A stretch of DNA of 64,000 nt from Dehalococcoidia bacterium (GTDB taxonomy: Bacteria; Chloroflexota; Dehalococcoidia; SM23-28-2; WHTN01): the NCBI GenBank assembly GCA_009377715.1, contig WHTN01000004.1:4753-68752 (forward strand). Reading direction: 5' to 3'. Positions 1 through 10,664 of this stretch are shown piece by piece; the stretch's first letter is position 1; every line of letters starts with the position of its first letter. The notes under the pieces are model-generated. The model was not told the origin of the DNA. It did no database searches and saw only the letters and a program-made list of their open reading frames with translations. The translations under genes were made by a program, and so were the position numbers.

Positions 1-34
1 CGATACGAAGGCGCCGCTGGGCGCCTTCTTCGCG

Positions 35-1348
35 CTAGCCGATCTTCTCGGCGCCGCCCATATACGGACGCAGCGCTTCCGGCACGACGACAGAGCCATC
101 GCGCTGCTGGTAGTTCTCCAGCACGGCGATGACCGTGCGAGGCAGCGCTACACCTGAGCCGTTCAGCGTGTGGACGAACTCCGGCCGCGCGCCCTTCTCC
201 CGCCGAAAGCGCACATTCGCCCGCCGCGCCTGAAAGTCGGCGCAGTTGGAGATGCTGCTGACCTCCAACCACTCCTCGCAGCCGGCGGCCCACACCTCGA
301 GATCGTAGGTCATCGCCGCGGCGAAGCCGAGGTCGCCGGTGCAGAGCTGGACGACGCGGTACGGCAGGCCCAGCAGGCGCAGGACTTCCTCGGCGTCGGC
401 AAGCATAGTATCGAGTTCGGCGTCGGACTCCTCCGGCAGGCAGAACTTGTACATCTCCACCTTATCGAACTGATGTCCACGCTTGATGCCGCGCACGTCG
501 CGGCCGGCGCTCATCTTCTCGCGGCGGAAGCACGGCGTATAGGCAGCGTACCGTAGCGGCAACGCGTCGCCCTCGAGGATCTCGTCGCGATGGAGGTTAG
601 TGATCGGCACTTCGGCCGTCGGCACGAGCCAGATGTCGTCTTCGACGTCGTGATAGAGGTTATCGGCGAACTTCGGGAGCTGGCCGGAGCCCACCAGCGT
701 CTCTTCTTTCACGACGAACGGCGGATCGACCTCGGTGTAGCCGTGCTTGGTGACGTGCAGGTCCAGCATCCAGTTGATTAGCGCCCGCTCCAGCCGAGCG
801 CCTGCGCCCTTCAGCACGTAGAAGCGAGAGCCAGATAGTTTTACGCCGCGCTCAAAATCGATTATGTCAAGCGCTTCGCCGATCTCCCAGTGCGGCCGCG
901 GCGCGAAGTCGAAGGTCGGCCTTACGCCCTCGGTGCGGACGACGACGTTCTCCGTCTCGTCCCGCCCGATAGTGACGCGCTCGTTGGGGATATTCGGTAG
1001 CTGCATCGCCAGGCCTTGCAACTGGTCCTCGGTCTGTTTTACGTCCACCTCAAGCTCGTTGATGCGCTCGCTTACATCCCGCATACGCGCCATCAACTCG
1101 TCGCGCTTTGTCGTTGCGGCGGCGGCTTCGCCTTCGTCTTTCGCGCGCTGGACGGCCTGGTTCAGCCCGCCGATCTCTTTGCCGGCGACGTTGCGTTCGG
1201 CTCGCAGCGCCTCGTACTCCTGCAAGAGCGTGCGCCGTCTTCCATCGAGCGCGATGATGTCATCGACCGGCGCCGCGTCGGCCTGACGGTCATGCAACGC
1301 CTTGCGGACGGCGTCCGGGTTATCGCGCACGAACTGAATGCTCAGCAT
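35..1348 (-). CDS. serS: seryl-tRNA synthetase
   Basis: 437-aa ORF; N-terminal coiled-coil tRNA-binding arm plus class II aaRS catalytic core; full length. Confidence 0.95.
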   Translation of the reverse strand: MLSIQFVRDNPDAVRKALHDRQADAAPVDDIIALDGRRRTLLQEYEALRAERNVAGKEIGGLNQAVQRAKDEGEAAAATTKRDELMARMRDVSERINELEVDVKQTEDQLQGLAMQLPNIPNERVTIGRDETENVVVRTEGVRPTFDFAPRPHWEIGEALDIIDFERGVKLSGSRFYVLKGAGARLERALINWMLDLHVTKHGYTEVDPPFVVKEETLVGSGQLPKFADNLYHDVEDDIWLVPTAEVPITNLHRDEILEGDALPLRYAAYTPCFRREKMSAGRDVRGIKRGHQFDKVEMYKFCLPEESDAELDTMLADAEEVLRLLGLPYRVVQLCTGDLGFAAAMTYDLEVWAAGCEEWLEVSSISNCADFQARRANVRFRREKGARPEFVHTLNGSGVALPRTVIAVLENYQQRDGSVVVPEALRPYMGGAEKIG

Positions 1349-1364
1349 ATTGTTCCATTAACCT

Positions 1365-1425
1365 CGTAGCTGCAGACCTTTAGGTCTGCTAAAGCCTTTG
1401 CAGGTCTAAAGACCTGCAGCTACGT
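1365..1425. repeat. compound palindrome: two hairpins (GCAGACC-TTTA-GGTCTGC and GCAGGTC-TAAA-GACCTGC) nested inside an 11-bp outer stem CGTAGCTGCAG...CTGCAGCTACG
   Basis: read directly; lies between NUDIX 3' end and serS 5' end; 16-mer core CAGACCTTTAGGTCTG recurs at ~32438. Confidence 0.6.
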
Positions 1426-1447
1426 ATCATGGCTACGTTTGTTTTAA

Positions 1448-1491
1448 CCGCTCATGGTTCGACACGTTCACCATGAGCCTGTCGAAGGGCC
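1448..1491. repeat. REP-like palindromic repeat, family 1 (CCGCTCATGG...CCATGAGC hairpin followed by CTGTCGAAGGGCC)
   Basis: hairpin arms GCTCATGGT/ACCATGAGC read directly; related copies at ~33269, ~42492-42583, ~43944. Confidence 0.6.
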
Positions 1492-1995
1492 AACAACATT
1501 TTCTGTGTGGCTCGTCGATCTCGCCATTTCTATCGCCTTCAAGGCGAGCAGGCACACGTCCTCGGAAACTGGTACGGAGATGCCGCAGCCGGCCAGCTCA
1601 AGAGCGCAGTCGCCCCGCAAATCGGCTTCGTCGACCCATACGCTTATCGCATCGGCATCCGGCGACATGGCCGGGACACCATCGAGCGGGCGGCAGAAGA
1701 AGATGAAGTCGACGTGCTTGTGGGGCTCTCCGCGGTCGAAGCTGTTCTCCAGCAGTATGGCGACGGGCGTCGGAAGTTGCTCCGGATAGGCGAAAGCCAG
1801 GGGTTCCCGGCCAGGTAGCACTTCCACAGCCAGCCCGGTCTCCTCGAGCACCTCGCGCAGAAGCCCCGTAACCGGATCTTCGTCGGGCAGAAGATGGCCG
1901 CCGGGCGGCAGCCACATCTGCGCCTTGCGGTGCCACTGAAGCAGGACCTTGCCGTCGTTGACGACGAAGCCAGTAGCCGTGAAGTGCCTCTCCAT
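1468..1995 (-). CDS. NUDIX hydrolase
   Basis: Nudix box GGHLLPDEDPVTGLLREVLEETG in 175-aa ORF. Confidence 0.85.
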   Translation of the reverse strand: MERHFTATGFVVNDGKVLLQWHRKAQMWLPPGGHLLPDEDPVTGLLREVLEETGLAVEVLPGREPLAFAYPEQLPTPVAILLENSFDRGEPHKHVDFIFFCRPLDGVPAMSPDADAISVWVDEADLRGDCALELAGCGISVPVSEDVCLLALKAIEMARSTSHTENVVGPSTGSW

Positions 1996-2000
1996 GTGCC

Positions 2001-2648
2001 TTAGTCTAACAGCGAGAGGTCGAAATGGGCCAGATCGTCGAGTACTACGTCCGCGAGACTTAGGTCGAGTCCCGTCGTGCTGAGCGTTCGCACAGCTACG
2101 ACGAACATTTCGGCCGCGTTGGCCGACCGTATGCCGGACGGCGAGTCCTCGATCGCCAGGCAGCGCTTAGGCCCTACGCCGAGCCGTTCCGCTGCGAGAA
2201 GATAGCAGTCAGGCGCCGGCTTGTGGCGCTCGACCATCTCGCCGGAGACGATGATTTCGAACGCGTCGCCGAGGCCGATGCCTTCGAGCAGCGCATCAAC
2301 CCACGCGCCCAACGATGACGACGCCAGCCCCAGTCGAAGGCCGCGATCGTGCGCGGCCGATATCAGTTCGCGGACGCCGGTGTTGGGCTCGGCGGGCTTG
2401 CGCAGTTCGGCGAGGACGGCGGGGTCGTAGAGGCGCACATACTCGGCCAGCGGCCGCCTGAGGCCGTAGCGGCGGATGTACTCCTCCCAGGCCGCTTCGA
2501 CGCTGAGACCGATGATCTCGGCGTAGTCGCGTTCTGGGACGAGGACGCCCTCTTCGGCAAGGATCGTGTTGACGGCTGCGTAGTAGCGCGGCTCGCTGTC
2601 GGCGAGCACGCCGTCCATATCGAAGATAATGGCGTCGAAGCGCGGCAT
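2001..2648 (-). CDS. HAD-superfamily hydrolase (subfamily IA, beta-phosphoglucomutase-like)
   Basis: motifs FDMDGVL, HKPAPD, EDSPSGI. Confidence 0.85.
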   Translation of the reverse strand: MPRFDAIIFDMDGVLADSEPRYYAAVNTILAEEGVLVPERDYAEIIGLSVEAAWEEYIRRYGLRRPLAEYVRLYDPAVLAELRKPAEPNTGVRELISAAHDRGLRLGLASSSLGAWVDALLEGIGLGDAFEIIVSGEMVERHKPAPDCYLLAAERLGVGPKRCLAIEDSPSGIRSANAAEMFVVAVRTLSTTGLDLSLADVVLDDLAHFDLSLLD

Positions 2649-2651
2649 CGG

Positions 2652-3317
2652 CTACTGTTGCTCCCAGACGACGTTATCCGACGCGTGGACGATGAGAATA
2701 TCGCCGGAGCAGATTTCGCTTAGCGTATTTAGTTCTTGTGGGGCGCTAGGATCGTAGCTCCGCCAGCTTTGATCGCTTGCTTCATATTGCCACGCCACGT
2801 CTAGGACATCCAGGGTCGCGAACGCATCTTCGACCGGCTTACAGCCATCCGGGTGCCACTCGACGAAGTTCCACCCCTGCCAGAGGTCGACCGTATGCGT
2901 TTGCGGCGTCTCACAGGTCAGGTCCAGCCGGTGCTGCTTGGTGGGATCCCAAACTCCCGTCTGAGCGCAAGGGAGGAACACGGGTTCAGGGAACGGGTCT
3001 ACCCAATCGAAGGTAATCGTATCGCCGTAGCCAGCGCAGCCCCGCTCGACGGTAGTCGCCTTCACGTCTACGGTATAGCCAATGCCAAGCTCCTCGATGT
3101 CCTGGACTTCCGCCAGGCCGCAAATCTTATCGCGGATCTTCGCCCGCACCAGCGTTCCTACTTCAGGAGGCGCCCCTTCGACGGTGACGGTGCCATAGAA
3201 CGTGACGTAACTGAACGTAGGCTGAGCATCGACTTTAGAAGCGTCCGGAGAGACGGTTAGAACTACAAGAGCCACGATACCCGCAAGCGCCAGAATGAGA
3301 GCAACCGATTTCCTCAC
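2652..3317 (-). CDS. secreted/membrane-anchored hypothetical protein (domain A + domain B, paralogous to both ends of the upstream beta-helix protein)
   Basis: hydrophobic signal/anchor (VALILALAGIVALVVL); start moved to GTG ~3317 because the ORF-track start overlaps the upstream gene by ~210 nt; domain similarity seen by eye. Confidence 0.55.
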   Translation of the reverse strand: MRKSVALILALAGIVALVVLTVSPDASKVDAQPTFSYVTFYGTVTVEGAPPEVGTLVRAKIRDKICGLAEVQDIEELGIGYTVDVKATTVERGCAGYGDTITFDWVDPFPEPVFLPCAQTGVWDPTKQHRLDLTCETPQTHTVDLWQGWNFVEWHPDGCKPVEDAFATLDVLDVAWQYEASDQSWRSYDPSAPQELNTLSEICSGDILIVHASDNVVWEQQ

Positions 3318-3328
3318 GATGTTGACCT

Positions 3329-5232
3329 TTAGTCCTGGAGCCAAACGACGCCTTCCAACATATAGATGCTTAGGATGCCACAGACCTCTTGCAGCGTATT
3401 CACACTCGCGGGCGCGTTCGGATCGTAGCCAAGCCACGTTTGCGTCTCGCCGACGAACGCCCACGCAGTGCCCAGAATGCCCGCTTCTGTGAGTTGACGG
3501 AACGCCCAGTCCGCCGGACGGCAGCTTGAGGGCTGCCACTCAACTAAGTTCCAGTCGCCGAATAACGGCACCAGCGCAGCATCGCGCGCTCCAAATTCGT
3601 AAGCGCCGATATCGCAAATAACGCTGCCGCCGGTATTGTCATCGAAGGGTCTCGGGCGGCTGCGCTGATCTCTATCTGGGCATGCGCTGTTATCGCCAGC
3701 GTCTATGGCAGGGCTGCCGAACAGCAAGGCGTGCGTAAGCTTAGCACCACCGTCGTCGCCAAGCTCACTGAGCAAAGCATCATCCACAACGCGATCACCA
3801 CTGGCGTCAGCCAGACCGCAAGTGTCGTCGTCCGCGATACTGTGGTTGGTGGATATCGGCTCCGGGCCGCCGCAGTTGGTTTGAATGTTACGAGCGACGA
3901 TGGTGTTCGTCATCGTCGCGTCGCCGGAATTGTATATCCCGCCGCTACCGCCAGCCGCTAAGCTCGCATTGTCAGCAATCGTGACGTTAGTGAGGGTCAG
4001 CGTCCCGCTATTGCTTATGCCTGTGCCTTCGGTAGCCGACTGATTGCCGCTGATCGTGCTGTTCGTCAGGGTCGCGGTGCCCGTATTACTGAGGCCACCC
4101 CCTAAGTCTCCGTAGTTGTCGCTTATCGTACTCAGGGTGACGGTGAGTGCACCGTGGTTATCAATACCGCCTACGCCCAGATCGCTAATGTTTGTGCTTA
4201 TGGTACTTTCGGATATTTCGAGAGTGCCGGAGTTATGAATGCCTGCGGTACCGTCGACGCTGCTGTTTCCGCTTACGACACTCGTGTCAATAATAAGCGA
4301 GCCGTCATTGAGTATGCCGCTACCCTGAGCTGCAATATTTCGGCCGATCTCACTATCACGTACTAAGGCGGAGGCCCCGTTGTGCAAAGCGCCACCGGCG
4401 CTACTGCTATTTGCGTTGATAGTGATTCTTCTAACTGCAAGAGCACCTTCCAGATTATGAATGGCGCTACCAGCCTCGCTGTTGCCATTTCGGATAGTTA
4501 GATTCGCTGCGCTGAACTTGGTAGCGCCGACGACGTGGAACACCCTATCGAGGGCACCACCGTCTAGAGTACTTGTAGCCGTGCCGGATCCGACAATTGT
4601 AAGGTCGTCCGTGATATCTAAGTCACCCGTCTCGGCCTCATCTTCGGCTGCAGCGCCATTAGCGATGGTCAAAGAATAAGTGCCAGGCGGGACCGATATT
4701 GCGTCCAGGCCAGATACAAAGTTCGCTTCTTGGACGGCCGCCCGCAACGTGCATTCGCCCAGGAACGTTGCGCAGGCGTTATCACCTAACACCTCATCGC
4801 CAGCGTCGCGCTCGCTAGTGACGACAAACGTACGTAAGGCTTCGGAACAGACCAAGTCTAGTTCTTGAAAGCCCCCGTCCCAACTGCCGACGGTAGGCAG
4901 CCCAGAAACTCACCTTGAATGGTCTCCACCTCGAACAGGATTACCTTGCCCGTAGTGCCGCAATTTAACTCGTGACCTATCCAAAGTACATCTATGACAT
5001 ACCCTATGCCGATATCTTCAACCTCTCGAACGGTAGTCTGGCCACATAGATGGCCATCGATCCTGGCGCGGATTTCAGTGCCAATGGGAGGTATGGATCC
5101 ATCTACCAAAACCGTACCGGATATTCTGGTGGGTGGCCCTATTTGAGCTCGCGCGGAATCGTTGTCGGCGGAACTGACCGCTATCAAACTTGTGAGCAGA
5201 ACAGCCGCTGCTAAAAGTATTAGCTTTCTCAT
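3329..5232 (-). pseudogene. secreted CSLREA-type right-handed parallel beta-helix repeat protein, frame-disrupted (ORF-track pieces 4858..5232 and 3329..4855 are one gene)
   Basis: signal peptide MRKLILLAAAVLLTSLIAVSSA; domain A continues across the ORF boundary in the -1 frame (..WDGGFQELDLVC.. matches ..VWDPTKQHRLDLTC.. of the paralog); CTLRAAVQEAN (CSLREA-like) motif; many NxGxLTLTNSTISGN beta-helix repeats; shift around 4885-4900. Confidence 0.6.
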
Positions 5233-5244
5233 TGCTCTAGCCTC

Positions 5245-6732
5245 CTACCCCCTACTCCTGAGTTGCGGGAAGAGTATGACCTCACGTATAGACGTCTGAC
5301 CCGTGAGGATCATCGTCAGGCGGTCGATGCCCATGCCGAGGCCGCCGGTGGGCGGCATGCCATGCTCAAGCGCCGTGAGGAAGTCCTCGTCTACGACCTC
5401 CGCTTCGTCGTCACCGGCAGCGCGGAGGCGGGCCTGCTGTTCGAAACGCAGGCGTTGCTCGATGGGGTCGTTTAGCTCCGAGAAGGCGTTCGCCACCTCG
5501 AAACCGCCGATGAACCCTTCGAAGCGCTCGACGTAGCGCGGGTCGTCCGGCCTTTGCTTCGCGAGCGGCGAAAGCTCGATGGGGTAGTCCAGCAGAAAGG
5601 TCGGCTGGATCAGGTGCGGCTCTACGAACGTCGAAAGCAGTTCGTCGATAAGCTTGCCGCGACCCTTGCTGGCGAGGTCACCCGGCGGCAAGCCAAGCGC
5701 CAGCATCGCCTCGCGCAACGAGCCGGCCTCCGGATACTCTTCGAAGTCGAGGCCAGAGCGCTCTTTGATCGCTTCACGCAGCGTCATCTGCCGCCAGGGC
5801 GGCGTAAGGTCTATCTCGTGGTCGCCGCGGGCGACCTTGGGCGTGCCGAGCACCGATATCGCGACGTTATATACAAGCTCTTCGACCATCCGGAGAACGT
5901 CGCGGTAATCGGCATAGGCCTCATACGACTCCATCGTCGTGAACTCGGGGTTGTGTTTGGTGGACAGGCCTTCGTTACGAAAGATACGGCCGACCTCGTA
6001 CACCTTGTCGATGCCGCCGACGATAAGCCGCTTGAGGTGCAGTTCGGTCGCTATGCGCATATAGAAATCGCTATCCAGCGCGTTGTAGTGCGTGACGAAC
6101 GGCCGCGCCGCTGCTCCTCCGGCGCTTGCCTGCAGGATCGGCGTCTCGACCTCAAGGAAGCCGCGGTCGTTCATGAAGCGGCGCACTGCCGCGACCACGC
6201 GGCTGCGCGTTAGCGCTATGCTGAGCGACTCCTCGTTGGCGATGAGGTCGAGATAACGCTGGCGATAGCGGGCTTCGATGTCCTGAAGGCCGTGCCACTT
6301 CTCTGGCAGCGGCCGGATGGATTTCGAGAGGAGCGCGTACTCTTTAGCTTCGACAGTGATCTCGCCGGCGCGAGTGCGGAATAGCGGCCCCACGACGCCG
6401 AGGAAGTCGCCTAAATCGAGGTCCTCCAGTCCAGCGTAAGCTTCGCCGATAAGGTCGCGGCGGAACTGCGCCTGGATCTTGCCGGAGCCATCTCGCAGGT
6501 CTAAGAACGCTACTTTGCCCATGACCCGCATAGCGGTGATGCGCCCCGCGACGCGCGCCTCGACATCGGTGCGCTCCGCTCTGCTGCTTTCGGCCTCCTC
6601 GAAGATGGCCGTCGCTTGGCCCGCAGTATGGGTACGTTGCCAGCGCGCAGGGTAAGGATCGACGCCCTGCTCTCGAAGCCTATCGAGCTTCGCCAGGCGC
6701 TGGTTGATTACTTCTTCGCCTCTATCCGGCAC
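5245..6732 (-). CDS. lysS: lysyl-tRNA synthetase (class II)
   Basis: 495-aa ORF with OB-fold anticodon-binding N-terminus and class II core; greA-lysS arrangement conserved. Confidence 0.95.
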   Translation of the reverse strand: MPDRGEEVINQRLAKLDRLREQGVDPYPARWQRTHTAGQATAIFEEAESSRAERTDVEARVAGRITAMRVMGKVAFLDLRDGSGKIQAQFRRDLIGEAYAGLEDLDLGDFLGVVGPLFRTRAGEITVEAKEYALLSKSIRPLPEKWHGLQDIEARYRQRYLDLIANEESLSIALTRSRVVAAVRRFMNDRGFLEVETPILQASAGGAAARPFVTHYNALDSDFYMRIATELHLKRLIVGGIDKVYEVGRIFRNEGLSTKHNPEFTTMESYEAYADYRDVLRMVEELVYNVAISVLGTPKVARGDHEIDLTPPWRQMTLREAIKERSGLDFEEYPEAGSLREAMLALGLPPGDLASKGRGKLIDELLSTFVEPHLIQPTFLLDYPIELSPLAKQRPDDPRYVERFEGFIGGFEVANAFSELNDPIEQRLRFEQQARLRAAGDDEAEVVDEDFLTALEHGMPPTGGLGMGIDRLTMILTGQTSIREVILFPQLRSRG

Positions 6733-7681: not shown

Positions 7682-8764
7682 TTGAGTAAGCTGGCGTGGG
7701 TGGCGGTCATACCTCTGTTCCTAAGCGCTGCCGTAGGTGGCGCCGCCGGAGCGCTTATAGCTTATTTCATCGTCGGGAACGATGATAATAATAACGCCTC
7801 AGCAATCGTAAGCCAGGTGGTCCTCGAAGAAGAATCCGCCCTCATAAGCGCGGTGCAAAAAGCAGCGCCCTCCGTAGTAGCCGTAGTGAGCCAAAACACA
7901 TCGAACCAGGGCGGCGCCACCACTGAACGGCTTTCGCTCGGCTCCGGCGTAATAATCGACGCTCGCGGATACATCGTCACGAACGAGCACGTGATTCACG
8001 AAGCGGCGCGCCCCACAGTAATCCTCGCGAACGGAGAGGAACGCCCAGCCGAGGTGATAGGGCACGACGCTCCCTTCACGGACTTGGCAGTCTTGAAGGT
8101 AGCGGAGGGTGGACTGCAGGCGATCGAACTGGGAGATTCGAGCGCTCTCCAATTGGGCCAGCGGGTGATAGCGCTGGGCAACTCGCTGCACGACTTTAAG
8201 AACAGCGTCACTCTTGGAGTCGTAAGTGGGACCGAACGCCGCTTCCCAAGAGAGAACATCTTTATGGAGGACCTGATCCAGACCGATGCCGCAGTGAACC
8301 CCGGCAACAGCGGCGGCGCGCTTGTCAATGCCGCCGGTCAGCTCGTCGGCGTCCCAACAACGGTCGTGCGGTCGGATACCGGACAGGAGGTCGAAGGTAT
8401 CGCCTTCGCTATAGCAAGTCGGACCGTAGGCGAAATAACGAACGAAATAGTAAGAAACGGCCGCATAGCCCGACCGTATCTCGGGGTGGTACACCAAGAC
8501 CTCTTCACGCCGGACGCAGGCCGCCAGTTAGGCCTAACCGCTACGCGTGGCGCGGTCGTGACCGAAGTCACGCCCAACAGCCCGGCGGCGGCCGCTGGCA
8601 TCCGGCGCGGAGACGTCATCTTGCGCATCGGCCAGCAAGACGTCACGCCAGAGATGCCGTTTCTCAACATCCTGCGCAGCCTTCGCCCCAATCAGCAGGT
8701 AGACATCGTCATTGACCGCCGTGGGGAGAGAGTGATTCTCTCCGATGTCACTCTCGGCAGCTAG
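7682..8764 (+). CDS. trypsin-like serine protease with PDZ domain (HtrA/DegP family), TTG start, N-terminal TM anchor
   Basis: catalytic motifs TNEHVI, GNSGGALVN; PDZ-like C-terminus; GGAGG RBS upstream. Confidence 0.9.
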   Translation: MSKLAWVAVIPLFLSAAVGGAAGALIAYFIVGNDDNNNASAIVSQVVLEEESALISAVQKAAPSVVAVVSQNTSNQGGATTERLSLGSGVIIDARGYIVTNEHVIHEAARPTVILANGEERPAEVIGHDAPFTDLAVLKVAEGGLQAIELGDSSALQLGQRVIALGNSLHDFKNSVTLGVVSGTERRFPRENIFMEDLIQTDAAVNPGNSGGALVNAAGQLVGVPTTVVRSDTGQEVEGIAFAIASRTVGEITNEIVRNGRIARPYLGVVHQDLFTPDAGRQLGLTATRGAVVTEVTPNSPAAAAGIRRGDVILRIGQQDVTPEMPFLNILRSLRPNQQVDIVIDRRGERVILSDVTLGS

Positions 8765-8819
8765 TCTCTAGAGTGGAAAAATCGCCAGAGAGAAGCTATA
8801 CTTTTAGCCACCGTAAACT

Positions 8820-10664
8820 ATGAGTCGCATACCTCCTCCTCGCCGTCCCCGCCCCTCGCTTGCAAGGGGGGGAGCAGTCGAACGCCGCCACGAAAGTGGA
8901 GATCCGGTCCCTTTTATAATCGGCGGCGTAATAGTTTTTCTGGCTATCTTGATCTTAGTCCTGTTTCTGCCGCCGTTCTCACTACTCGGGGATGGCGGAG
9001 ACGACGATGGCGACCAGGTATCGACCTCTTCCGGTCTTACATTCAACACCAGCGAGCAACTGCCTGCGTTACCGGATAACCTTGTTGCCGTCAGCCCGCA
9101 CTTATCGGATATCAGGGTGCCCTCCAATCTAACTGATGGGCAGGTCCTCATCAGGATCCGGCTAACCCGTCCCGTCCAGGACGCTTCCAACATCGGCTTC
9201 TATACGTTCGAAGATAACCAGTGGAGCCGTATAGGCGGGGCGTCCCTATCCGAGGACAGACGTGAGGCGCTAGCAGAGTTCGACGAAGTCCCGTCAAACC
9301 TCGCCGTGTTGCAGCTTTCCGGCGCGGCTTTGCAAGTTACTGCCTGGCTGCCCCAGGGCGCAACAGTTAAACAAGAGGCGCAAAGCGTAATAAACGTATT
9401 AAACCCTCTTGGCCTCACTCCAAGAAGCGATGGCAGCGTCTCCGGCAACCTCGGCCAGTTACCCGCTGGATCTTTCCAAGTCCAGCCGGCCCTCCGAGCC
9501 ATCGATGGTGAGGCGGCAAGCGCCGTAACTGCAATACTATCGAATTCAGGGGCGACCCAGCAGCATATCGAGGCGATAGCGAATATCGCCCGACAAGGCG
9601 ACTATAGCGGCATCGATATCGATTACCGCTCTCTCGAAGTAGTGGAGAGACAACAGTTCACCGACTTCATAACGCGACTAGCGCAGCGACTCCACGACGA
9701 TGGCCGCTCCCTAAGCGTGACGCTGCCGCTGCCACAACGGCAAGGCGATATGTGGCGGACCGGCGCCTACGACTGGCCAGCGATAGGCCAAGCCGCGGAT
9801 GTCGTCAAAATCGTGTCCGAACAAGACCAGTCGATCTACAGATCGGTCATGACGGATGTTCTGACCTTCGCTACGGGCGAAGTCCCTGCGAGCAAACTGT
9901 TCCTGATACTGAGCCCCTTCAGCCACGAACGCACCCCCAACGGGATACGTTCGCTTTCGTTCGTCGAAGCTCTCGGCACGGCAACCGTAATGAGCGTAAG
10001 AAGCCCGATGGGCCCGATAAGCACCGGCACGCGCGTTACCGTAACCGGCGATAACATCTATCGCCCAGACGGTGCAACTGGCATCCGTTGGGACGAGGAC
10101 GCCTCTATAGTAAGCTTCTCTTTCCGCTCAAATAACGAGGAGCACACCATCTGGGTCGAGAACTCGTTCAGCATCGCGTTTAAACTCGATCTAGTCCGCT
10201 CCTTCGGGCTGGGCGGGGTAGCGATCGAAGATGCTTCCGACAGTGCAGGAGGCGCCGATATATGGTCGACCGTGGCTAATTCGGTAGCGGGCAGTCTAAC
10301 TCTCGCCAGGCCACACCCGGACAACCTGAGGGCAACGTGGGAAGCCGAACAGGGCGCTATAGAGGCAGGGACCAGCGGGCAAGCAGCAACATGGACTGCC
10401 CCGGACCGTGCCGGAACATATCAGGTCGCCCTTATCGTCGGCGACGGCGTTGCCAGGGTCGGGCGAAGGCTCGATCTTCAGGTGGGCGGTGGCGCGAGCA
10501 CGCCCGCTCCCACAACGGCCGCTACGCCCGTATCGACCGTAGCACCGACTACAATCGCGACGGCTACTCCCGTGCCCACCGCCGAGCTAACGATCGAACC
10601 TACAGCGACGCCTGAACCGACGCCAGAGCCTACCCCTTCACCAACGCCAACCCCTACACCGTAA
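8820..10664 (+). CDS. membrane-anchored GH18-like (chitinase-fold) domain protein with Ig-like segment and Pro/Thr-rich C-terminal tail
   Basis: TM helix IIGGVIVFLAILILVLFL; GH18-like ..YSGIDIDYRSLE.. with Arg where the DxxDxDxE catalytic Glu sits; GLGGV motif; PT-rich tail at ~10490-10661. Confidence 0.7.
   Translation: MSRIPPPRRPRPSLARGGAVERRHESGDPVPFIIGGVIVFLAILILVLFLPPFSLLGDGGDDDGDQVSTSSGLTFNTSEQLPALPDNLVAVSPHLSDIRVPSNLTDGQVLIRIRLTRPVQDASNIGFYTFEDNQWSRIGGASLSEDRREALAEFDEVPSNLAVLQLSGAALQVTAWLPQGATVKQEAQSVINVLNPLGLTPRSDGSVSGNLGQLPAGSFQVQPALRAIDGEAASAVTAILSNSGATQQHIEAIANIARQGDYSGIDIDYRSLEVVERQQFTDFITRLAQRLHDDGRSLSVTLPLPQRQGDMWRTGAYDWPAIGQAADVVKIVSEQDQSIYRSVMTDVLTFATGEVPASKLFLILSPFSHERTPNGIRSLSFVEALGTATVMSVRSPMGPISTGTRVTVTGDNIYRPDGATGIRWDEDASIVSFSFRSNNEEHTIWVENSFSIAFKLDLVRSFGLGGVAIEDASDSAGGADIWSTVANSVAGSLTLARPHPDNLRATWEAEQGAIEAGTSGQAATWTAPDRAGTYQVALIVGDGVARVGRRLDLQVGGGASTPAPTTAATPVSTVAPTTIATATPVPTAELTIEPTATPEPTPEPTPSPTPTPTP

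Follow-up and report, generated by a model that had tools for sequence, protein, structure and literature searches.

Several families of exported beta-helix proteins provide the context for the gene described here. CSLREA and choice-of-anchor Q proteins are exported right-handed beta-helix proteins that are common in Chloroflexota, and a CSLREA domain-containing protein is listed among the type II secretion system effectors of Acinetobacter (PMC9245377). RbtA (PDB 9CDU/9CDV), a cell-surface protein of A. baumannii that has a beta-helix domain and whose function is unknown, has a crystal structure described as the first for its class (PMC12643943). In this work, we analysed a 64,000-nucleotide stretch of contig WHTN01000004.1 from a metagenome-assembled Dehalococcoidia bin (GCA_009377715.1), hereafter the window, in which two adjacent genes, designated gene 1 and gene 2, lie between lysS and a gene for a HAD-family hydrolase. 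Both encode two small domains, A and B, and gene 1 has in addition a beta-helix between them, which is distributed together with its flanking domains over two open reading frames (ORFs), 1a and 1b. Our analyses indicate that gene 1 is likely to be one secreted A-helix-B gene that has recently become a frameshift pseudogene in a variable lysS-HAD slot.

RbtA is the only solved relative of the window helix, from which the product of gene 1 differs in ending in domain B (...VVWLQD) and in having no GlyGly-CTERM. Its C-terminus (...GILSIYMLEGVVWLQD) has no Gly/Ser-rich stretch with a transmembrane segment and basic tail, and it does not resemble a rhombosortase target. With the CSLREA/choice-of-anchor Q proteins the window helix shares a C-[ST]-L-R-[EA]-A motif, GGA[IL]/N rungs and a variable C-terminal module after the helix, whereas its two flanking sandwiches, A and B, occur together in none of the 120 best homologues, its gene is frameshifted and its CSLREA model score lies under the cut-off. 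A GGA[ILV] and N-rich rung pattern is also shared with the chlamydial Pmp repeats (PF02415) and Beta_helix (PF13229), but the window protein has no autotransporter beta-barrel and no Pfam match of its own. Domain B, in turn, resembles S-layer homology (SLH) domains, carbohydrate-binding modules (CBMs) and the C-terminal domains (CTDs) of the type IX secretion system in being ~80 residues long, terminal and single or tandem on unrelated secreted proteins; it belongs to none of these by sequence or by significant structure, and a similar role is suggested by its architecture only.

A gene split within domain A

The features of gene 1, all on the minus strand, are as follows.

5232..4858, minus strand: ORF 1a, 124 aa, with a putative signal peptide and most of domain A
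5146..5232, minus strand: putative Sec-type signal peptide, 29 aa, MRKLILLAAAVLLTSLIAVSSADNDSARA with cleavage before Q, read by eye
4885..5145, minus strand: first 87 residues of domain A in the frame of ORF 1a, which include three of its four conserved Cys; matched at E 1e-32 by positions 1-92 of the A-B profile
4883..4897, minus strand: frameshift site, CCTACCGTCGGCAGT, one base missing, a -1 frame change needed
4858..4884, minus strand: out-of-frame tail of ORF 1a by three-frame translation, VGTGAFKN, with a TAG stop at 4860-4858
4855..3329, minus strand: ORF 1b, 508 aa from a TTG start, its frame open from 4909
4847..4882, minus strand: last 12 residues of domain A in the frame of ORF 1b, WDGGFQELDLVC, including the fourth conserved Cys
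3584..4846, minus strand: predicted right-handed beta-helix domain, 421 aa, comprising N-cap, rungs and choice-of-anchor Q C-cap
3329..3583, minus strand: domain B, 84 aa, with two conserved Cys and a TAA stop at 3331-3329; positions 106-189 of the A-B profile, E 5.5e-36

An earlier note, made from the letters of the window, had proposed that the 4858..5232 and 3329..4855 ORFs are one gene, the former carrying a signal peptide and domain A and the latter having no signal peptide. The coordinates and frames are as it described, and the unity of the gene is borne out by the spacing of two conserved residues and by a gain in profile score. In all homologues, a conserved Cys and a conserved Trp near the end of domain A are arranged as C-x5-W, which places 15 nucleotides (nt) between their codons. 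In the window, the Cys codon (4899-4897) lies in frame 1a and the Trp codon (4882-4880) in frame 1b, and only 14 nt separate them; therefore, the simplest event is the loss of one base within 4896-4883. The insertion of two bases was rejected as it would yield C-x4-W, which is present in no homologue.

Three-frame translation of the junction gives ...ILFEVETIQGEFLGCLPSAVGTGAFKN and then a stop in frame 1a, and a stop followed by VSGLPTVGSWDGGFQELDLVCSEALRTF... in frame 1b, the corresponding place in gene 2 reading ITFDWVDPFPEPVFLPCAQTGVWDPTKQHRLDLTC. Ahead of its TTG, the frame of ORF 1b is open upstream to 4909 and gives VSGLPTVGSWDGGFQELDLVC, which continues domain A as in the paralog, in agreement with the earlier note, the WD....LDLxC ending being found in gene 2 and 10 homologues. 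More fully, a domain A ending of the form C-x5-W-x(8-10)-[LH]-L-x-C was seen in the 10 homologues beyond gene 2. An independent hidden Markov model (HMM) of domain A, built from 11 homologues with no gene 1 sequence (104 positions), scored 82.2 bits on ORF 1a alone, covering positions 3-90 of 104; the alignment stopped at residue 117, and the last eight residues of the ORF are unrelated to domain A. With one base inserted anywhere in 4883-4897 the score rose to 92-95 bits over positions 3-104, and single-base insertions outside that interval scored lower. The restored base thus brings 10-13 bits, and end-to-end coverage of the domain is reached only then. The A-B profile is likewise tiled by the pieces, ORF 1a covering positions 1-92, the first part of frame 1b positions 88-105 and its last part positions 106-189. 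A single domain therefore crosses two frames when judged against independent homologues, by HMM and by C-x5-W spacing alike, at about 4883-4897, where the earlier note had placed the shift at around 4885-4900.

The intact precursor of gene 1 would have had ~634 aa, consisting of a signal peptide, domain A, a Pmp-like helix of ~420 aa in the linker between A and B, and domain B. This is the parent that had been proposed (signal peptide, A, a CSLREA/choice-of-anchor Q helix and B), and it is supported by the domain map as a reconstruction. One base would have been lost 12-17 codons before domain A is complete. Ribosomes that start from the strong ribosome-binding site would then stop at 4858 and yield a secreted and presumably defective 124-aa fragment that has neither the last strand nor the fourth Cys of domain A. 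The helix and B part would be left with no signal peptide and no convincing ribosome-binding site, and is most likely either not made or not exported. Because nothing else in gene 1 is damaged, the pseudogene would be a very recent one.

The downstream frame is open for 526 codons, for which we estimate a chance of ~4e-9 in random sequence of the same composition, and the lesion is therefore either recent or not real. The latter would be the case if the organism carries an intact gene and the base was lost through an error of sequencing or assembly, or if the consensus of the metagenome-assembled genome (MAG) took up a minority variant. Evidence on this point comes from a Logan assembly (L001, a 10.6-kb contig of run SRR10173838) that carries the same 124-aa and 508-aa ORFs and is identical to the window at the shift site. 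Over 5346 shared bp, the two have 0 gaps and 4 single-nucleotide polymorphisms (SNPs), all in serS, and thus L001 is not a copy of the window consensus. The SNPs are clustered at window positions 908, 905, 902 and 873, which suggests strain-level variation or a small recombination patch. Run SRR10173838 is an Illumina HiSeq 2x150 metagenome from a study of Centrosaurus fossil bone, the MAGs of which, several novel Chloroflexi bins among them, came from a co-assembly in which this run was used (PMC8067395). By virtue of that co-assembly, the window and L001 assemblies probably share reads.

Three points weigh against a recent pseudogene: the probable sharing of reads by the two assemblies, the lone lesion in an otherwise perfect 634-codon gene, which fits an error or minority variant equally, and the fact that no intact orthologue (signal peptide, A, helix and B) was found in any search, the intact parent being reconstructed. 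On the other side, two different assemblers agree at the site while their consensus sequences differ elsewhere by the four SNPs, the data are Illumina 2x150, and the site has no homopolymer run. Indel errors are rare in Illumina data. We therefore consider it unlikely that the gene is intact in the organism, and believe, with good though not full confidence, that the deletion is real, the agreement being one between assemblies.

It is highly improbable that ORFs 1a and 1b are two real genes, one for a short secreted protein with A only and one, read from the TTG at 4855, for a helix and B protein that stays in the cytoplasm or is exported in some other way. Gene callers do predict both ORFs, and A-only proteins of similar size exist, such as P0089 (126 aa). 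Against this, ORF 1a ends inside domain A, retaining three of its four conserved Cys and acquiring an unrelated eight-residue tail, and the end of the domain lies in the other frame, just ahead of the TTG. That TTG is not preceded by a Shine-Dalgarno sequence, and ORF 1b has no signal peptide though its homologues are exported. Every homologue has a domain A that runs on across the boundary, and none is split as gene 1 is; the positional counterpart in a related contig (L002, described below) is a single ORF, so that neither of the findings that the earlier note had named as fatal to its proposal was made.

Programmed -1 ribosomal frameshifting or transcriptional slippage, giving a short and a long product, is scarcely credible. 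The change required is indeed -1 and the downstream frame is fully open, but 4897-4883 contains no X XXY YYZ heptamer, homopolymer or simple repeat, the only nearby run (G5 at 4876-4872) comes after the conserved Trp, and the homologues are all single-frame. A phase-variable tract was also ruled out, as the site is without a simple repeat.

The beta-helix and domains A and B

The helix of the putative pseudogene was matched by the NCBIfam choice-of-anchor Q model (NF041518) with 69.3 bits against a cut-off of 25 (E 2.4e-19) over residues 377-439 of the 526-aa frame (window 3781-3593). The CSLREA N-terminal model (TIGR04214) gave 21.3 bits (E 1.9e-4), which is below its curated cut-off of 25, although the motif ECTLRAAVQEAN is present. 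The choice-of-anchor Q assignment is clear, and the helix may also be CSLREA-type, as first described: its nearest homologues are named CSLREA by NCBI and JGI. The N-cap, with its motif, occupies 4828-4721 and the C-cap is the choice-of-anchor Q domain. Between them we counted only ~9-10 rungs, each 24-25 aa long and marked by GGA[IL].N motifs, in place of the ~20 SGN-type rungs first proposed.

A search with reconstructed gene 1 found more than 3132 helix homologues. The best of them share 40-45% identity with it, confined to the helix, and most of the named ones are CSLREA or choice-of-anchor Q proteins of Chloroflexota. Pfam searches of all three window proteins returned no family, only a chance WWE match under its cut-off, and neither PF13229 nor PF02415 was found in the helix protein itself (no family at E <= 1). 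Among 21 close helix homologues, however, seven match PF02415 (Chlam_PMP) and two PF13229 (Beta_helix), and four have dockerins. A single-sequence search of the PDB found no match, and RbtA was reached with a profile only: the profile of the window helix and 20 homologues matches the RbtA beta-helix (9cdu_A) with E 6.7e-9 over profile positions 113-333. Through this homology to a solved structure, the window helix is predicted to be a right-handed parallel beta-helix.

None of the 120 best helix homologues has a clear A or B domain. Among them, P0231 has only a weak A-like domain, which is free of Cys and lies ahead of a CSLREA helix, and P0244 and P0227 have a weak B-like tail, that of P0227 following a choice-of-anchor Q cap. 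No other instance of the full A-helix-B combination came up in the homologue searches and domain map. The 508-aa ORF 1b (3329-4855) is filed in a 90% cluster represented by an unrelated 53-aa ENA peptide (P0275), which probably explains its absence from the search with reconstructed gene 1. That clustering is a database artefact and not biology, and a 1.7-Mb ENA contig reached through the cluster (L084) was set aside as irrelevant to gene 1.

Domains A and B together form a unit of ~190 aa with six invariant Cys (C35, C63, C86, C104, C128 and C172). Gene 2 has the domain order, the six Cys and the profile match as a whole (E 1e-91, profile positions 2-189), and in gene 1 the same A and B flank the helix. 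An AlphaFold2 (AF2) model of mature gene 2, based on an alignment of 43 sequences, has a mean predicted local distance difference test (pLDDT) score of 96.7 and consists of two all-beta domains, A (residues 1-105) and B (residues 106-190). In this model, A appears as a transthyretin/CnaB-like beta-sandwich with four conserved Cys and B as a smaller beta-sandwich with two. An earlier AF2 model from five sequences had a pLDDT of only 59.6 for domain B, and its Foldseek result is unreliable for that domain. Foldseek with A-B produced no match at E <= 1e-3, the weak structural matches of domain B being usher C-terminal domains, the RgpB CTD and CBM20/41. An A-B profile search of the PDB also found no match, and no Pfam or NCBIfam model matches either domain.

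The family seemed almost unique by word-indexed protein searches (two matches with gene 2, five with the A-B profile), which missed a 435-aa protein of L002; a full HMMER scan of 1.84 billion representatives revealed 1224 proteins at E <= 0.001, 133 of them at E <= 1e-10. Genome contigs searched with the A-B profile gave no relative, metagenome contigs searched with P0003 gave no match, and metagenome contigs searched with the A-B profile gave a single distant B-tandem protein, on a JGI contig (L083). There, positions 8-1573 encode a signal peptide, two B-like domains and then a larger domain, and the B copies are divided between two ORFs (8..442 and 500..1573), which may point to a further frameshift, or an assembly error, in a gene of the B family.

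The domain map contains signal peptide-A-B proteins of 210-230 aa; A alone, in tandem, or followed by a linker and membrane anchor; and B, single or tandem, in very different proteins, which carry it either at their very C-terminal end or immediately behind the signal peptide. Partners of B include S8 subtilase, metallopeptidase-like, CAP, FG-GAP, Kelch and DUF11 domains. A and B are thus separate, promiscuous modules, and the architecture suggests that B behaves like a terminal binding or attachment module. Another homologue, P0012, combines a signal peptide and A with a Pro/Thr linker and a C-terminal hydrophobic anchor with a basic tail. P0009, a distant signal peptide-A-B protein, is encoded on a Logan contig (L087, 151-1634) directly upstream of a sortase gene (PF04203) and has no obvious LPXTG-type signal.

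Inspection by eye of the N-termini of ORF 1a and gene 2 found a pair of basic residues, a hydrophobic stretch and an AxA cleavage site followed by Q. That cleavage pattern is common to gene 1, gene 2, P0002 and P0003, and signal-peptide features were also seen by eye in P0002, P0006, P0007 and P0008. By the look of their N-termini, the products of ORF 1a and gene 2 are predicted to be exported by the Sec pathway.

The lysS-HAD slot and the origin of gene 1

The genes around gene 1 are, from upstream to downstream, as follows.

6732..5245, minus strand: lysS, upstream border of the slot, with synteny in L002, L085 and one JGI contig
3317..2652, minus strand: gene 2, 221 aa, intact, with putative signal peptide, A and B
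3317-3225, minus strand: putative gene 2 signal peptide, 31 aa, ...KVDA with cleavage before Q, read by eye
3224-2913, minus strand: gene 2 domain A, from homologue alignment and A-B profile
2912-2655, minus strand: gene 2 domain B, from homologue alignment and profile; stop codon at 2654-2652
2648..2001, minus strand: HAD-family hydrolase, conserved downstream border of the slot
1995..1468, minus strand: NUDIX
1348..35, minus strand: serS

From lysS to HAD the genes are closely packed. ORF 1a starts 12 nt past the lysS stop, and its AGGAGG Shine-Dalgarno sequence lies 8 nt upstream and overlaps that stop codon; the start of gene 2 is 11 nt past the stop of gene 1, and the start of HAD 3 nt past that of gene 2. 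A scan of the region for promoters and terminators found nothing informative. The description of gene 2 as a signal peptide with A and B only was confirmed by alignment and the A-B profile. A mechanical list of ORFs lengthens it to 295 aa (up to 3539), a form that overlaps the 3' end of gene 1 and is an upstream read-through. Its start is also called differently by Logan (230 aa from a TTG at 3344) and NCBI (221 aa from a GTG at 3317); homologue alignment and the putative signal peptide favour 3317, or at most 3344.

The slot was compared with those of relatives, which hold the following.

Window: A-helix-B (frameshifted), then A-B
L002 (Logan, SRR32818396; lysS 83% and HAD 84% identical to the window): a 435-aa ORF with signal peptide and A-B-A-B, then a 225-aa A-B gene
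L085 (NCBI GCA_046758945.1; lysS 77% identical to the window): a single A-B gene between lysS and HAD
JGI metagenome 3300056388, contig 1: lysS, with an A-B gene (P0007) as its immediate downstream neighbour
JGI metagenome 3300056388, contig 2: an A-B gene (P0003) directly ahead of HAD, with a further gene (at least 304 aa) upstream of it

The synteny of the slot is therefore a matter of observation. It extends further in L085, where the counterparts of window 7682-10664 comprise an HtrA-like protease (7682..8764, 65% identity) and a GH18-like secreted protein of 614 aa with a Pro/Thr-rich tail (8820..10664, 59%), so that the conserved block is GH18-like, HtrA, greA, lysS, [cassette], HAD. Beyond these relatives, a lysS-anchored scan of 80 more distant lysS loci found none with A or B, the closest species representatives being Dehalococcoidia MAGs that are only 64-65% identical. 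Gene 2 shares 53-57% identity with the corresponding gene of L002, compared to 83-84% for the flanking lysS and HAD, which suggests that the cassette genes evolve fast relative to their flanks. The G+C content of the first cassette gene is also below that of its flanks, both in the window (51-57% versus 63-64%) and in L002 (1222-2529; 52.7% versus 64%), and could reflect relaxed codon bias or a foreign origin. In the second cassette gene it is nearer to that of the flanks. Taken together, the lysS-HAD gap holds a small, fast-evolving cassette of putatively Sec-exported A-B proteins in this Dehalococcoidia lineage.

The earlier note had regarded the two genes as a clean case of domain shuffling between adjacent proteins, in which the paralog lacks the beta-helix. 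Neither part of that account was upheld. Domains A and B of gene 1 are only 35% and 42% identical, respectively, to those of gene 2, as against 43-45% to proteins from other genomes, and they share 34-46% identity with each of the other copies; with so little identity between the neighbours, a recent exchange between them was rejected. A-B is the ancestral and by far the commoner unit. The slots of L002 and L085 contain A-B without a helix, and therefore gene 1 is the derived gene. The helix sits exactly in the linker between A and B and, in comparison with L002 and L085, is present in the window genome only. As judged from these alignments, gene 1 would have gained the helix in that linker, or the helix would have replaced an internal B-A, as a lineage-specific event. 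A scan of the region revealed no repeats flanking the helix such as would mark a recent insertion.

Two peculiarities of the gene 1 domains are possible signs of divergence or relaxed constraint. In domain B (3332-3400), two residues are missing after the second conserved Cys (EVCG--ILSIY versus C-x-[GAN]-[DN]-[IVA]), and in domain A, Ser replaces the Tyr/Phe of the other close A-B copies (F[YF]G to ISG).

Implications for the cell surface of Dehalococcoidia

The product of an intact gene 1 would potentially be an exported, disulfide-stabilised surface protein with a Pmp/RbtA-like helix displayed between two sandwiches. A plausible function would be that of an extracellular surface or adhesion protein with the helix as its displayed part, and B, at the place where choice-of-anchor proteins carry their anchor, might be a binding or envelope-attachment module. 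These roles, adhesion or display for the helix and attachment or binding for B, are what sequence comparison suggests to us.

The pseudogene itself is of little weight, the finding being real and biologically ordinary. For annotation, it means joining the 124-aa and 508-aa ORFs into a single entry that is marked as a disrupted gene. Of more consequence are A and B as two uncurated and fairly widespread extracellular domain families that now have a confident AF2 model, and B in particular as a recurrent terminal module and candidate attachment module in a phylum with a poorly known cell-surface biology.

A bolder possibility, which we put forward as a tentative and somewhat doubtful one, is that B is a new and widespread envelope-attachment or ligand-binding module of Chloroflexota-type secretomes and that lysS-HAD is a diversifying surface-protein locus. 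If this is true, B would be functionally like SLH domains or CBMs, being carried N- or C-terminally by many secreted enzymes and repeat proteins, and the cassettes of the slot would have been duplicated (A-B-A-B), given foreign domains (the beta-helix) and silenced by frameshift, with phages, predators or changing substrates as the source of selection. Irrespective of that possibility, the locus offers a natural example of domain insertion, in which a housekeeping slot holds one or two fast-evolving A-B genes whose architectures vary and in which the insertion is at the linker.

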